A stretch of 64,000 nt of DNA. It comes from Coprothermobacterota bacterium. GTDB taxonomy: Bacteria; Coprothermobacterota; HKB111. Made by a program: the position numbers. Shown here in pieces: positions 24,001-27,000 of this stretch. Positions within the stretch are counted from its first letter, which is position 1, and each line of letters begins with the position of its first letter. Location of the stretch: the NCBI GenBank assembly GCA_037440465.1, contig JBBIUB010000006.1, positions 1 through 64,000 of the forward strand. Reading direction: 5' to 3'.

Positions 24001-27000
24001 GAGAGGTGGATGTTAAACATTAAAGCTTAAAAGTAAAAAACTATCGAAGTAAGTAATAAGTTTGGGTTCGTGGTATTATGGTAAAAAAGAAAAAACAAGA
24101 AGAATAACACAGGAAGGATATAAATAATTTAACAATGGACTTACAGAAAATTATTGATAGAAAGAATAATCCAATTAAAATTGGGCTGGCTGGAGTGGGG
24201 CAGATGGGAAGGGGAATTGTTGCTCAGACCATCAATGCACCTTGGGTCAGGGTGGTAGCTCTCTTTGACCATCGTCTTGAGAGAGTCTTTACTCTTTATG
24301 AGAGCTATGAGCTTGATAGACCCGTAGTTATAGAAAACGGAGACATTGAGAAAGCAGAAGAAATTATAAGGAATGGGAAAACTGCCCTTCTTCCAGATGT
24401 TAAATCTATCTGTGCCATTCCTTCTGTAGAGGTAGTAGTAGATGCCACAGGGTCTCCAGAGGGTGGAGCAATTGCTGCCTGGGAGAGTATTGAGAAAGGA
24501 AAACACATCGTTCTTCTCACTGTGGAGACTGATGTGGTAGTTGGAAGGATTTTAAGAAAGAAGGCAGAGGAGAAGGGAGTGGTCTATACTCTATCTGCTG
24601 GAGATGAACATGCTTCCGCTAAAGAACTTTACGACTTTGCCATCTCCCTGGGTTTTGAGGTGGTAGCAGCCGGGAAGGGGAAAAATAATCCTTTAAATTT
24701 TCACGCCACTCCATTAGAGCTGGAGGAGGAGGCAAGGTTCAAAAGAATGAGTCCCAGAATGCTTACTTCTTTTGTGGATGGCACAAAAACTGCTATTGAG
24801 ATGACAGCACTTTCTAATGCCACCGGGCTGGTTCCTGATGTGAGAGGGATGCATGGTGTTGTGGGAAGACCTGAAGATATGCCCCGTTTATTTACTCTTA
24901 AGAAGAACGGTGGCGTTTTGAATCAAGAAGGGGTGGTGGATTTTGTCTTTGGGCTTGCTCCTGGTGTTTTTGTAGTGGTGAAGACCGATAATAAAGAGAT
25001 GCAATATATTCTTTCCTATCTAAAAATCGGGGAAGGTAATCAACATTTTTTATATCGTCCTTACCATCTGGTTTCTTTGGAGACTCTTACTTCGGTTTAT
25101 AAGGCTATTATATATAATGAACCTACCATTGTGCCCTTATACACCCCTTACTCAGAGGTTATAACTTGTGCCAAAAGAGATTTAAGAGAAGGAGAGGTGG
25201 TTGATGGGATCGGCGGGAAGATGGTCTATGGTCTTATAGAACGGTATGAAGTTGCGAAAAGTGAAAATCTGGTACCCATAGGACTTCTGGAGGGGGCACA
25301 AATCCTTCGGGATATAAAAAAGGATGAGCCTATCTCCTATGACGAGGTCCTCTTGAAAGAAGGTTTTCTTCCATCTTTAAGGAGGAAACAAGAGGAGATG
25401 GGCTTATAAAAGAAAGCTTAAAAGAGGGCGAGAAGCTTTCTTCAGGATTTTAATTAAATAATGTGATAGAATTAAACATTAAATTTTAAGGAGGATACCT
25501 TACATGTGCGAGCACGATGAAGAAGAAGTCTGTGAGGAAGAATTGTTCGAAGAAGAGACTATACTGGATCTTCTAAGGCAGGACCTCATTGACGAACTAA
25601 GAGCGATTAATCAGTATGAGGAACATATAAACTACGTAGATGATGAAAGTGTCATCGTTGTTCTACAGGAAATAATACTCGCTGAAAAAGAACATGTAGC
25701 CCGTCTTATAAACCTAATTAATTCTCTGGATCCTGAGCAGAAGGAGAAGTTTAAGTTAGTTCAATAGGTTCGTTAGTTAGAGCTGTATAGATTTTTACAA
25801 GCCCTTCCAGGTCTCGTAAGGAAACTACCTCTACTGTAGAGTGGGTGTAGCGTACGGGGAAGCATAATGGAAGGGCTTTGTATCCTTTATAGGCAGTTTC
25901 CGCGGCGGCGGCATCTGTAGAACCTCCACTTATTCCGTATTGAATATTTACTCCAGTCATTTTAGCTAATTTTTCAACCAGAGCGATTACCTCTTTACCC
26001 ACTACCATCCGATTATCTGCCATTCTTATGGTCGGTCCTCCACCCACTTCAAAAGAGCCTTCAAAGGCAGGCGAGATTCCAGGGAAATCGGGTGATGATA
26101 TAGAGTCGCAGGCTACAGTTAAATCAGGGTTAAATTGTGGCGCTAAAACTTGTGCTCCTCGAAGTCCAATCTCTTCTTCGGTTGTGAAGGTGACGATGGC
26201 GGTGTTTTCAGGGCGCTCTTCTTTCAATCCCTGTAAAAGTTTTATGAGAGTATAGCAACCTAATCTGTCATCAAGTCCCCTGCTGACTATCAAGTCTTCT
26301 CTATTTAAATAAGTAATATCTTTATTAAAAACAATTGGAGTACCTATCCGGATACCTAAAGCCAAAGCCTCGCTACGAGTTTTAGCTCCTATGTCTAACT
26401 TGAGTTGATGCCAGGGGGTGGTTTTTTCTTTTTCCTGCGGGTCAACAATCAGGTGAGGTGGTTTTAGCCCGATGATACCATGTACTTCACCAAAAGTAGT
26501 AAGGATACGAACGATTCTGGAAGGTAAAATACGGTCATCTATTCCGCCAAGTTTATAAAAAGAGAGGTATCCTTTCTGGTCTATGGCGGATACTACCATC
26601 CCCAACTCGTCCATATGTGCCATGAAAAGAATTTTATAATCCTTCTTTGTACCGTTTACGATGGCAATTAAGTTACCCAGATTGTCAACTTTTACCTCAT
26701 CAGCATATTTTAAGGCTTCAGTTTTTAGATACTCTCTTATGGGTTCTTCAAACCCTACAACACCCGGGGTTTTAAGCAGGTCTTTCAGAAGTTTTTTATC
26801 TTCAAGTGTCATTTTGTCCTCCCTGGATAATTATTTAGTTAATTATAACAAAACGAATCTTTTTATTTTACAGTGCTGTAGATGGGGTCAGGTCTACGCA
26901 ATTGACTAATCTCCCCTGACCCCTTTTTACAAAAGAGGGGAACATTTTACACACCTGAGATTTACTGGTTACTGATTTAGAATTATATTATGAGAAAAGC

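Follow-up and report, generated by a model that had tools for sequence, protein, structure and literature searches.

The DXR-II family of DXR-like enzymes (DRL) has been described from Alphaproteobacteria, Firmicutes, Chloroflexi, one Betaproteobacterium and one Fusobacterium, and in its 'class A' genomes the MEP pathway is complete apart from the loss of DXR-I (PMC3847144). Ten residues (G121, E174, F178, K191, K193, T229, H250, R320, Y322 and V351) bind substrate and tell DXR-II enzymes apart from the oxidoreductases DLO1 and DLO2 (PMC3847144). A MEP pathway without DXP synthase (DXS) has also been published: a survey records it in 181 of 4400 complete genomes and names no substitute for 172 of the 181 DXS-less species (PMC10663253). 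DXP is made without DXS in E. coli by aceE and ribB suppressor alleles (PMC3424233), and likewise by the MTA-isoprenoid shunt of Rhodospirillum rubrum. With regard to the lipid products, a hepT ispA double mutant of S. aureus is viable, so that something else must start its isoprenoid chain, and DMAPP is stated to be no substrate for the UppS of other species (PMC12345219).

The DNA analysed here, a stretch of 64,000 nucleotides (the window, C6:1-64000), belongs to a genome of the Coprothermobacterota, a phylum outside the groups from which DXR-II was described. The genome (1.28 Mb, 35 contigs, 94.5% complete) was studied together with others of the phylum, giving a sample of 13 genomes in three families, f1 (HKB111; n = 4), f2 (n = 6) and f3 (n = 3). 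These genomes are 1.2-1.6 Mb in size and mostly draft assemblies (68-95% complete); two are single contigs (G004, 99% complete; G005, 96% complete), and one (G003) has a contamination of 10%. Absences from a single genome are soft, because our genome is fragmented and incomplete to the extent given above and because single genes drop out elsewhere in f1: G002 (83% complete) has no DRL match and G001 no transketolase-like gene. The genome resembles the 'class A' genomes in having lost DXR-I and kept the rest of the MEP pathway, and differs from them in that DXS is missing as well.

The DRL gene is an ORF of 424 aa with an ATG start at positions 24135..25409 of the window (+ strand), identified by PF21135 and by alignment to Brucella DRL. 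Its three-domain architecture is that of the Brucella abortus enzyme (PDB 3UPL, 3UPY), to which it is similar at E 9e-92 and 311 bits (phmmer), the alignment to 3UPY running end to end (residues 11-419 against 21-432). The N-terminal nucleotide-binding domain (approximately residues 11-155; 24165..24599, +) aligns with Brucella residues 21-165 and contains a GxGxxG-type motif (G-L-A-G-V-G-Q-M-G); its limits were inferred from the starts of this alignment and of the PF21135 match. The catalytic domain (residues 156-317; 24600..25085, +) spans all 164 positions of PF21135 (DRL_cat; E 2e-60; 204 bits, cut-off 27). The C-terminal SAF-like domain (residues 346-404; 25170..25346, +) aligns with that of Brucella and matches PF08666 weakly (E 3.4e-4, 21.5 bits against a 21-bit cut-off).

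Nine of the ten diagnostic residues are identical in the window DRL, among them E164, F168, K181, K183, T219, H240, R308 and Y310, which lie in the catalytic domain and map to E174, F178, K191, K193, T229, H250, R320 and Y322 of Brucella DRL. The substrate and fosmidomycin anchors of the DXR-II family (K191, K193 and T229) and its dimer-interface residues are kept; the exception is position 351, here Tyr, and Tyr or Phe in this lineage as against the usual Val (PMC3847144). The same nine residues are intact in the orthologues of G001 and G003, and the three f1 proteins are 62% identical, with intact catalytic residues. By comparison, an Aureibaculum homologue (34% identical) differs at six of the ten positions, with S, N, N, V, L and I at 121, 174, 191, 229, 250 and 320, a DLO-like pattern (PMC3847144). 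We consider it very probable that the window DRL is a functional DXR-II. It occurs in three of the four f1 genomes and in none of the nine genomes of f2 and f3. A search for related loci found only three full-length relatives, one of them frameshifted. The GC content of the gene (z = 1.1) shows no anomaly that would point to recent transfer, and scans of its surroundings for Rfam families, promoters and terminators gave nothing above background.

Canonical DXR shows the reverse distribution, being present in all genomes of f2 (6/6) and f3 (3/3) and in none of f1 (0/4). In f2 and f3, dxr sits in the frr-cdsA-rseP-ispG array. On contig C2 of our genome the order is rpsB-tsf-pyrH-frr-cdsA-rseP-ispG, where cdsA overlaps rseP by 4 nt, so that the dxr slot is empty, as the initial annotation had stated. 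Its further claims, that the genome has no canonical DXR and that DRL stands in for it, agree with these data: the best PF02670 match in the genome reaches 13 bits, on an acyl-ACP-reductase-like protein, and the DRL is assigned by the alignment and residues given above. This weak DXR-N match, at C1:43777-43944, was rejected as DXR, the protein being acyl-ACP-reductase/PigE-like. In f1, dxr would have been deleted from a frr-cdsA-dxr-rseP-ispG array, and DRL, having replaced it, would convert DXP to MEP.

The distribution of DXS divides the phylum differently. True DXS was found in all six f2 genomes (86-312 bits), even at 68% completeness and in G011, where it is split across two contig fragments (219.7 and 86.1 bits); it is missing from the four genomes of f1 and the three of f3, one of the latter a single contig. 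The initial annotation had reported this same pattern, which was reproduced. PF13292 gives only sub-threshold scores in our genome (18-19.2 bits; cut-off 21.2), on a 765-aa protein of contig C23 that is discussed below. Matches above the cut-off in f1 and f3 were rejected as DXS, since the proteins cross-matched are the transketolase-like one, IorA and a 289-aa split transketolase in G003; the '670-aa' protein matched in f3 is IorA (TIGR03336, 832 bits).

Compared with the survey of DXS-less genomes (PMC10663253), the phylum is similar to its cases in that downstream MEP genes are kept and DXS and the mevalonate pathway are missing (HMG-CoA reductase, PF00368, in 0 of the 5 genomes G000, G001, G004, G005 and G006), and to most of them in having no MTA-isoprenoid shunt (RuBisCO-like protein, PF00016, in 0/13). 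It differs in that the loss of DXS is resolved within one small phylum, f2 against f1 and f3, and in that all trans-prenyl synthases have also been lost and, in f1, DXR-II is present. None of the known DXS bypasses fits our genome, which has no RuBisCO-like protein, AceE-type E1, YajO or RibBA suppressor residue. E. coli queries for YajO, AceE, TalB and PdxJ gave no phmmer match, and no further transketolase-family match of the AceE E1 type was found. Its RibBA was rejected as a suppressor-type source of DXP, having the wild-type Gly at G108 and Glu at D113, without G108S or D113G. An acetolactate-synthase-type enzyme is likewise lacking, the PF02775 matches of the genome being only four types of 2-oxoacid:ferredoxin oxidoreductase.

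The demand for DXP appears to be very small, because PLP can be made through PdxS/PdxT, both present, and because no ThiG, quinone prenyltransferase or haem prenyltransferase was found. The search for ThiG used one E. coli query in phmmer, and its weak match is PdxS. Demand for FPP would be low as well: neither f2 nor f3 has a UbiA-family protein, and the family's only member in f1 is DPPR-like, a user of polyprenyl phosphate and not of prenyl diphosphate. A DXS-independent reaction, which would not be that of the C23 enzyme, would supply DXP at low flux. Comparison of the DXS-less families f1 and f3 with f2 could pin down the DXP-forming reaction.

The remainder of the pathway is present as the initial annotation described it, IspD to IspH with a single UppS. 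IspD, IspF, IspG and IspH were found in all five genomes tested. IspE is clear in f1 only (159.4 bits in our genome, 138.7 in G001); elsewhere it scores 68 bits in G005, below the cut-off, and about 18 in G006, and G004 has no match. UppS (C1:168725-169429) scores 256.7 bits with PF01255 and 248.9 bits with TIGR00055 (cut-off 109.55). All 13 genomes have UppS (242-265 bits), 12 of them as exactly one full-length copy and the other as a copy of 229 aa. MraY-family proteins are also general, with at least two matches in each genome, and BacA is present. The stripped-down path would thus run from DRL through IspD, IspE, IspF, IspG and then IspH to one UppS, and its only evident lipid product would be the polyprenyl-phosphate sugar carrier, used by MraY, a WecA-like enzyme and, in f1, a decaprenyl-phosphate phosphoribosyltransferase-like enzyme.

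What is missing between IspH and UppS is a trans-prenyl diphosphate synthase (trans-IDS). The claim that the genome has none can be extended to the whole sample: PF00348 (polyprenyl_synt) was found in 0 of the 13 genomes, including the single-contig assemblies G004 and G005. In our genome there is no PF00348 match even at E<=10, and an HMM built from seven IDS sequences, run with --max on 3561 ORFs of at least 50 aa, reached 6.8 bits at best. Pairs of DDxxD motifs 80-200 residues apart were considered as marks of a hidden trans-IDS and rejected, as they occur only in PhoU and MgtE-type proteins. Outside the phylum, PF00348 is present in 234 of 245 genomes that are at least 90% complete. The 11 outgroup genomes without it, mostly small (0.5-1.8 Mb), were called at a threshold of E<=1e-15, at which weak matches are possible; one, G017, was also negative at E<=0.001. 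In seven of the 245, UppS and IspH are present and PF00348 is missing at E<=1e-15. Nothing relevant on a natural lack of ispA or of FPP synthase came out of the literature searches. In all likelihood both DXS and trans-IDS are truly absent, and the carrier must therefore be started in a way that has not yet been described.

The nearest parallel is the S. aureus hepT ispA mutant, which also has UppS and a peptidoglycan wall and no prenyl diphosphate synthase with a FARM motif (PMC12345219). It is, however, a sick laboratory mutant, whereas the state seen here is natural, extends through the phylum and recurs in seven further sampled lineages. Enzymes of the UppS fold that start from short primers are also known. 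The tomato enzymes CPT1/NDPS1, CPT2 and zFPS prime on DMAPP, and Rv1086 of M. tuberculosis on GPP; the cis-prenyltransferase fold can therefore prime on short (C5 or C10) primers. These enzymes have the fold and catalytic residues of our UppS, whose scores are 182-193 bits with the tomato enzymes and 187 bits with UPPS of E. coli. Their products, however, are C10-C20 chains made alongside a trans-IDS, whereas our UppS would have both to prime and to elongate to carrier length.

The catalytic residues D26, N28, R30, H43, S71 and N74 of UppS are invariant in 13/13 genomes. All 13 also share F23, V25 and L69 (E. coli numbering), which adjoin the catalytic Asp and are found in only 3, 2 and 3 sequences, respectively, of 112 other UppS homologues. 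Position 69, where the tomato enzymes have Ala, belongs to a pair (A69/L84) that is tied to chain length in cis-prenyltransferases. The F23/V25/L69 signature occurs in none of nine outgroup UppS from genomes without an IDS, in which no convergent signature was found; it is therefore no general mark of life without trans-IDS. A plant cis-IDS is reported to be opened to DMAPP by two substitutions, Asn to His within DGN and His to Phe within GHxxG (PMC13737982); both are absent here, N28 and H43 being invariant. No positive signal for DMAPP priming was found. On the FPP-specific model NF007596, whose cut-off is 418 bits, our UppS reaches 199, a score that is not decisive for the primer. Literature searches on a DMAPP-primed bacterial carrier lipid gave only plant and engineering work.

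From the gene content, the simplest reading, short of proof from sequence, would be a route to the carrier that is all-cis or primed by DMAPP: UppS would start chains either from DMAPP or from a short cis primer that it makes itself, and the resulting carrier would be without the usual di-trans farnesyl head. Self-priming by UppS, argued from the missing genes, seems to us plausible rather than probable. An explanation of the whole, in which DRL replaces DXR, the pathway is stripped down, little DXP is needed and UppS primes itself, is on balance the one that we favour, with some reserve. We put forward more tentatively the reading that the lone UppS both initiates on DMAPP and elongates, giving an all-cis carrier without FPP, that the pocket residues F23, V25 and L69 are an adaptation to this role, and that DXP comes from a DXS-independent reaction. 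This tentative reading might extend to a few per cent of the other bacteria with small genomes, and such a UppS would be a natural counterpart, by analogy, of S. aureus's 'third prenyl diphosphate synthase'.

The alternative that survives best, though we think it unlikely, is that an enzyme of unseen fold or divergence makes trans-prenyl diphosphate, DXP or both, so that UppS receives an FPP-type primer. It would be in keeping with the ORFs without family match in our genome (e.g., C1:44413-45324 and C23:3201-4448) and with the 172 of 181 DXS-less species for which the survey names no substitute (PMC10663253). However, every gene that neighbours ispD/F, ispE, ispG, ispH, DRL and uppS has an ordinary assignment, leaving no unknown partner; a 345-aa ORF upstream of ispD was considered as one and rejected, being a PIN-TRAM protein. 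To our knowledge, moreover, only two folds make linear prenyl diphosphates, and the trans type left no trace in the Pfam search or with the HMM described above.

Less probable still is an outside supply, by a partner, a host or the medium, of deoxyxylulose or DXP together with a short allylic primer (or prenols to be phosphorylated afterwards), which the enzymes would only process. The small genomes of the phylum, similar to those of most other bacteria without trans-IDS, would suit such dependence, and the window contains one FGGY-family sugar kinase (42020-43558). A member of that family, the xylulokinase of E. coli, is able to phosphorylate deoxyxylulose. The kinase was nevertheless rejected as a deoxyxylulose kinase tied to the DXS-less families, since its distribution does not follow DXS: it is also present in DXS-bearing f2 and missing from DXS-less G001. 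Nor do we know of any uptake of charged prenyl diphosphates. The f1 lineage, furthermore, acquired DRL and kept it after the loss of dxr, and its retention with intact catalytic residues in all three orthologues speaks for DXP being turned over steadily inside the cell.

It is very improbable that DXP is made in place of DXS by the C23 protein (g01163), a TPP enzyme of 765 aa. The initial annotation had proposed it as a phylum-conserved, highly divergent candidate for the DXS bypass, and it is indeed the sole transketolase/DXS-superfamily protein of our genome, gives the weak PF13292 match noted above and is conserved at 55-80% identity across 12 of the 13 genomes. The one genome that lacks it, however, is G001, itself DXS-less, and members of the family coexist with true DXS in 6/6 f2 genomes, in line with the caveat already attached to the proposal, that g01163 is the transketolase of the lineage. 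Its hhalign alignment to TktA of E. coli covers 558 columns (99% probability) and that to E. coli Dxs only 151 (88%), and no NCBIfam DXS model is listed for it. We checked 13 positions that we take to be the catalytic and cofactor residues of transketolase (H26, H66, H100, D155, N185, H261, R358, S385, E411, H461, D469, H473 and R520, E. coli numbering), and all are kept in 9/9 aligned members, with D or E at D155 and K at R358. The kept histidines include those that hold the donor ketose. Rpe and RpiB, both present, need a transketolase partner. The protein is about 100 residues longer than TktA, with the same domain order, TPP motif and catalytic residues. With TIGR00232 it scores 102 bits, far below the cut-off of 682.25, despite an alignment of residues 35-719 with positions 15-614 of 654, and therefore appears to form a separate long-form transketolase subfamily. 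Neither phylum-specific nor unusually divergent, this family comprises at least 5389 proteins at E<=1e-10 among 8000 candidates scored; the 119 others listed show 58-75% identity. At 58-66% identity it is spread over many phyla, in several of which its members are named transketolase. Judged by these features, the C23 protein is most probably a transketolase and not a DXS.

That dxs and an ispA-type gene merely lie in unassembled or mis-binned DNA is hardly credible, even with mostly draft genomes from which DRL (G002) or the transketolase-like gene (G001) can be missing, given that PF00348 is lacking from 13/13 genomes, two of them single contigs, that DXS is lacking from 7/7 genomes of f1 and f3 and present in 6/6 of f2 down to 68% completeness, and that in control genomes PF00348 was detected in 14/14 and DXS in 13/14.

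Antibiotic research pursues DXS, DXR, FPP synthase and UppS as targets, each of them being presumed indispensable to every bacterium with the MEP pathway; of these four, three are naturally missing in their canonical form from this lineage. The exchange of DXR is understood. The DXS gap offers a clean contrast within one phylum for a phenomenon that is published and as yet unexplained (PMC10663253). The lack of a trans-prenyl synthase beside a single UppS is the more interesting part, and with it the question of what starts the chain in cells without IspA becomes directly testable. If UppS primes itself, inhibitors of FPP synthase could be bypassed, and the stereochemistry of bacterial carrier lipids would be less uniform than textbooks say.

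The genome under study (1.28 Mb in 35 contigs; 94.5% complete, 0.56% contamination) encodes a DXR-like protein (DRL) of 424 aa on the forward strand of the window (24135-25409), with a PF21135 match (E 2e-60) and a weak C-terminal SAF domain. Among all solved structures it matches only Brucella DRL (3UPY and 3UPL), its residues 11-419 aligning to 21-432 of that protein (E 9e-92, 311 bits). According to Carretero-Paulet et al. (PMC3847144), DRL homologues comprise true DXR-II reductoisomerases and oxidoreductases of two families, DLO1 and DLO2. In DXR-II, fosmidomycin and the substrate are held by K191, K193 and T229, the dimer interface includes E174, F178, R320 and Y322, and conservation of G121, H250 and V351 is limited to this class (PMC3847144). 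When these positions were transferred via the alignment with the Brucella structure, whose PDB chain numbering is that of PMC3847144, nine of the ten were identical in the window protein (G111, E164, F168, K181, K183, T219, H240, R308, Y310), and V351 was replaced by Tyr (Y339). The orthologues in G001 and G003, at 62-63% identity, have the same nine residues. A homologue from Aureibaculum (34% identity) carries S121, N174, N191, V229, L250 and I320, the DLO pattern as given in that paper. Because of the residue test and the end-to-end match of 311 bits, the window protein can be filed with good confidence as a predicted DXR-II, and this part of the pathway adds a further, unremarkable example of a known enzyme type. 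Its nearest named relatives among the matches found are from an Actinomycetota MAG (45% identity) and Clostridium sp. AM58-1XD; the latter copy (NZ_QSDR01000002.1, about 2971-4267, L075) is split over three reading frames and is a pseudogene or the product of assembly errors.

The genes around DRL encode peptidases of families M20 and M42 (the latter an aminopeptidase) and a GNAT protein, next to a small ORF of 87 aa; none is linked to isoprenoids. The small ORF, directly 3' on the same strand (25504-25767), has a sub-threshold EncFtn-like match (22.5 bits vs a cut-off of 27). No Rfam family or terminator was found near DRL, the one promoter-like match lies just within the ORF, with fewer matches than in shuffled sequence, and the GC content of the gene is unremarkable (z = 1.1).

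The phylum was sampled with 13 species genomes from three families: f1 (G000-G003, with the genome under study as G000), f2 (G004, G006, G007, G008, G011, G012) and f3 (G005, G009, G010). DRL occurs in 3 of the 4 f1 genomes, the fourth being 83% complete, and in none of the nine others. Conversely, a short canonical DXR (361-362 aa) is present in all nine f2 and f3 genomes and in no f1 genome; the protein has matches to DXP_redisom_C, DXPR_C and the N-terminal domain, and its gene belongs to an frr-cdsA-dxr array. The corresponding array here is rpsB-tsf-pyrH-frr-cdsA-rseP-ispG, in which cdsA and rseP overlap by 4 nt. The initial annotation, which described an empty dxr slot and DRL in place of DXR, is thus borne out, and the dxr-less array, the overlap and the presence of dxr in f2 and f3 argue that dxr was cleanly excised, with DRL acting in trans. 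The arrangement is that of "class A" in PMC3847144, in a new lineage.

Several MEP genes beyond dxr may have been replaced in f1. IspG, IspH, IspD and IspF were found in all five genomes searched (G000, G001, G004, G005, G006), and HMG-CoA reductase in none of these. In f1, IspD and IspF are encoded by two distinct genes with high scores (here C3:26799-29004, in the order radA / PIN-TRAM / ispD / ispF / gltX / cysS); f2 and f3 have a fusion of the two, with scores about half those of f1 (e.g., G004:C1:785010-786023 and G005:C1:628120-629136). A clear IspE is seen in f1 alone (159 bits here, 139 bits in G001), the score falling below cut-off in G005 (68 bits), to about 18 bits in G006 and to no match in G004.

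True DXS (PF13292, 86-312 bits) is found in all six f2 genomes; the G011 gene is divided between two contig fragments (219.7 and 86.1 bits). The PF13292 search of f1 and f3, including the single-contig, 96% complete G005, gave only cross-hits. These fell on a transketolase-like protein of 765-790 aa, on IorA (TIGR03336, 832 bits), on a split transketolase of 289 aa in G003, which is contaminated, and, indirectly, on a short transketolase (645 aa) in G002. DXS is therefore missing from this genome and its family, as first annotated. This gap is a known, unexplained phenomenon already in print: according to PMC10663253, 181 of 4400 complete bacterial genomes have every MEP gene but Dxs, 172 of them without a nameable substitute.

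The 765-aa thiamine diphosphate (TPP) enzyme at C23:792-3089 had been proposed to replace DXS. Transketolase_N is its sole domain over the cut-off, and a profile built from nine sequences of the phylum gave a 558-column alignment to E. coli TktA (38-695 vs 22-605, probability 99%), vs one of 151 columns to Dxs (probability 88%). Of the transketolase residues checked, all nine sequences keep H26, H66, H100, N185, H261, S385, E411, H461, D469, H473 and R520, with D155 as D or E, and have Lys at the position of R358. The family is present in 12 of the 13 phylum genomes (55-80% identity), including all six that bear DXS. Nor is it a specialty of the phylum, as 5389 relatives at E<=1e-10 were found among 8000 candidates scored; the matches listed include 119 other proteins of about 760-800 aa at 58-75% identity, which their sources annotate as transketolase in WS2, KSB1, Coprothermobacterota, Chloroflexota, Calditrichota and Bacillota. 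The genome under study has Rpe and RpiB and no second transketolase-type gene. Because of these findings, the protein is read from its sequence as the long-form transketolase of the lineage, not a DXS substitute.

GC and GC3 of C23:792-3089 are well above the genome average (z = 1.9 and 2.3). Neither the long-form transketolase nor an FGGY kinase was found in G001 (95% complete, 20 contigs). G002 carries a second, short transketolase-type gene (645 aa; G002:C157, L056:1051-2988; NF004559 266 bits, below cut-off), found within f1 only there, apart from the split form in G003.

None of the known bypasses tested accounts for DXP here. The RuBisCO-like protein of the MTA shunt is absent from all 13 genomes. 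AceE and YajO homologues are absent from the genome under study, as is any TPP enzyme of the acetolactate-synthase type, its only PF02775 proteins being four of the 2-oxoacid:ferredoxin oxidoreductase type. A RibBA suppressor variant was rejected: of the positions altered in E. coli ribB suppressor alleles (PMC3424233), G108 is still Gly, and D113 is replaced by Glu. Likewise, the single-copy FGGY-family sugar kinase of the window (42020-43558, forward strand, 512 aa, FGGY_N and FGGY_C) has a distribution that does not follow DXS absence. Demand for DXP is probably small and limited to isoprenoids, since PLP is made by PdxS/PdxT and searches of this genome with E. coli queries found no ThiG or PdxJ; ThiE is encoded outside the window and a ThiC homologue within it (52949-54220, forward strand, E 7e-116 vs E. 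coli ThiC). An Rfam scan of the whole window at gathering thresholds found no TPP riboswitch, the sole match being a tRNA (9627-9698, reverse strand). DXP could conceivably arise here as a by-product of another enzyme, because trace DXP was reported in E. coli lacking DXS (PMC3424233, 2012).

The trans-prenyl diphosphate synthase is missing throughout the phylum. At E<=0.001, PF00348 was found in none of the 13 genomes, two of them single contigs (99% and 96% complete), vs 27 of 28 outgroup genomes in the same search and 14 of 14 controls. The genome under study has no candidate even at E<=10; a custom HMM built from six outgroup enzymes and E. coli IspA, run without filters against its 3561 ORFs, scored at most 6.8 bits, and paired DDxxD motifs occur only in PhoU. 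Every genome has exactly one UppS (242-265 bits), here at C1:168725-169429 and passing the uppS equivalog TIGR00055. The combination originally noted (DRL for DXR, no DXS, no trans-prenyl synthase) is confirmed, and the observation is extended.

Among 251 genomes at least 90% complete, PF00348 at E<=1e-15 was found in 234; the 17 without it are 6 phylum genomes and 11 of 245 others, 10 of which may hold weaker matches. UppS occurs in nine of these 11 and IspH in nine, with both in seven, from seven families with genomes of 0.5-1.8 Mb. The state is thus rare yet recurrent. The seven (G049, G084, G111, G124, G159, G206, G227; L094-L100) are 91-100% complete, mostly small and unrelated; G017 and G177 have UppS without IspH, and G056 (4.0 Mb) and G143 (3.8 Mb) IspH without UppS. 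We found no literature on natural loss of IspA-type enzymes, and on DMAPP-primed carrier lipids only plant and engineering work.

With no trans-prenyl synthase, UppS would initiate chains on DMAPP, which we tentatively regard as the likeliest mechanism. [quoted passage not shown] UppS from other species is reportedly unable to use DMAPP (PMC12345219). The catalytic residues D26, N28, R30, H43, S71 and N74 are invariant in the phylum. Asn-to-His and His-to-Phe changes open a plant cis-prenyl synthase to DMAPP (PMC13737982); these are absent from phylum UppS, and no special residue is common to the phylum and the nine UppS proteins of outgroups without a trans-prenyl synthase match. F23, V25 and L69 (E. 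coli numbering) occur in the UppS of all 13 genomes (L003, L057-L068) and in all eight close metagenomic homologues, vs 3, 2 and 3 sequences, respectively, among 112 others; position 69 is Ala in the five best PDB matches, tomato CPT1 and CPT2 among them. All three adjoin the Asp26/Ser71 region, 23 and 25 directly preceding the catalytic Asp26. A69 lines the entrance to the product tunnel; in E. coli UppS, A69L reportedly slows elongation, and the equivalent Leu reportedly holds Rv1086 to C15. The signature is a lead, not evidence. The main rival, a synthase that has escaped recognition, is rather unlikely. External supply of precursors and artefactual absence are each less likely than either.

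At least two MraY-family genes are present in each of the 13 genomes, and BacA in the one under study. Families f2 and f3 lack UbiA-family proteins; the sole f1 member (C12:12841-13737, reverse strand, L084:5842-6738) resembles decaprenyl-phosphate phosphoribosyltransferase (NF008978, 216.9 bits vs a cut-off of 207) and is found in G000 and G001 but not in G004, G005 or G006. Its substrate would be the carrier lipid itself. Its occurrence points to a polyprenyl-P-ribose pathway, arabinan-type or similar, confined to f1. What merits pursuit is the phylum-wide absence of a trans-prenyl synthase alongside a single UppS. Since enzymes that use trans-prenyl diphosphates seem to have been lost from the phylum, the isoprenoid pathway appears to serve only the carrier lipid, plus direct users of DMAPP.
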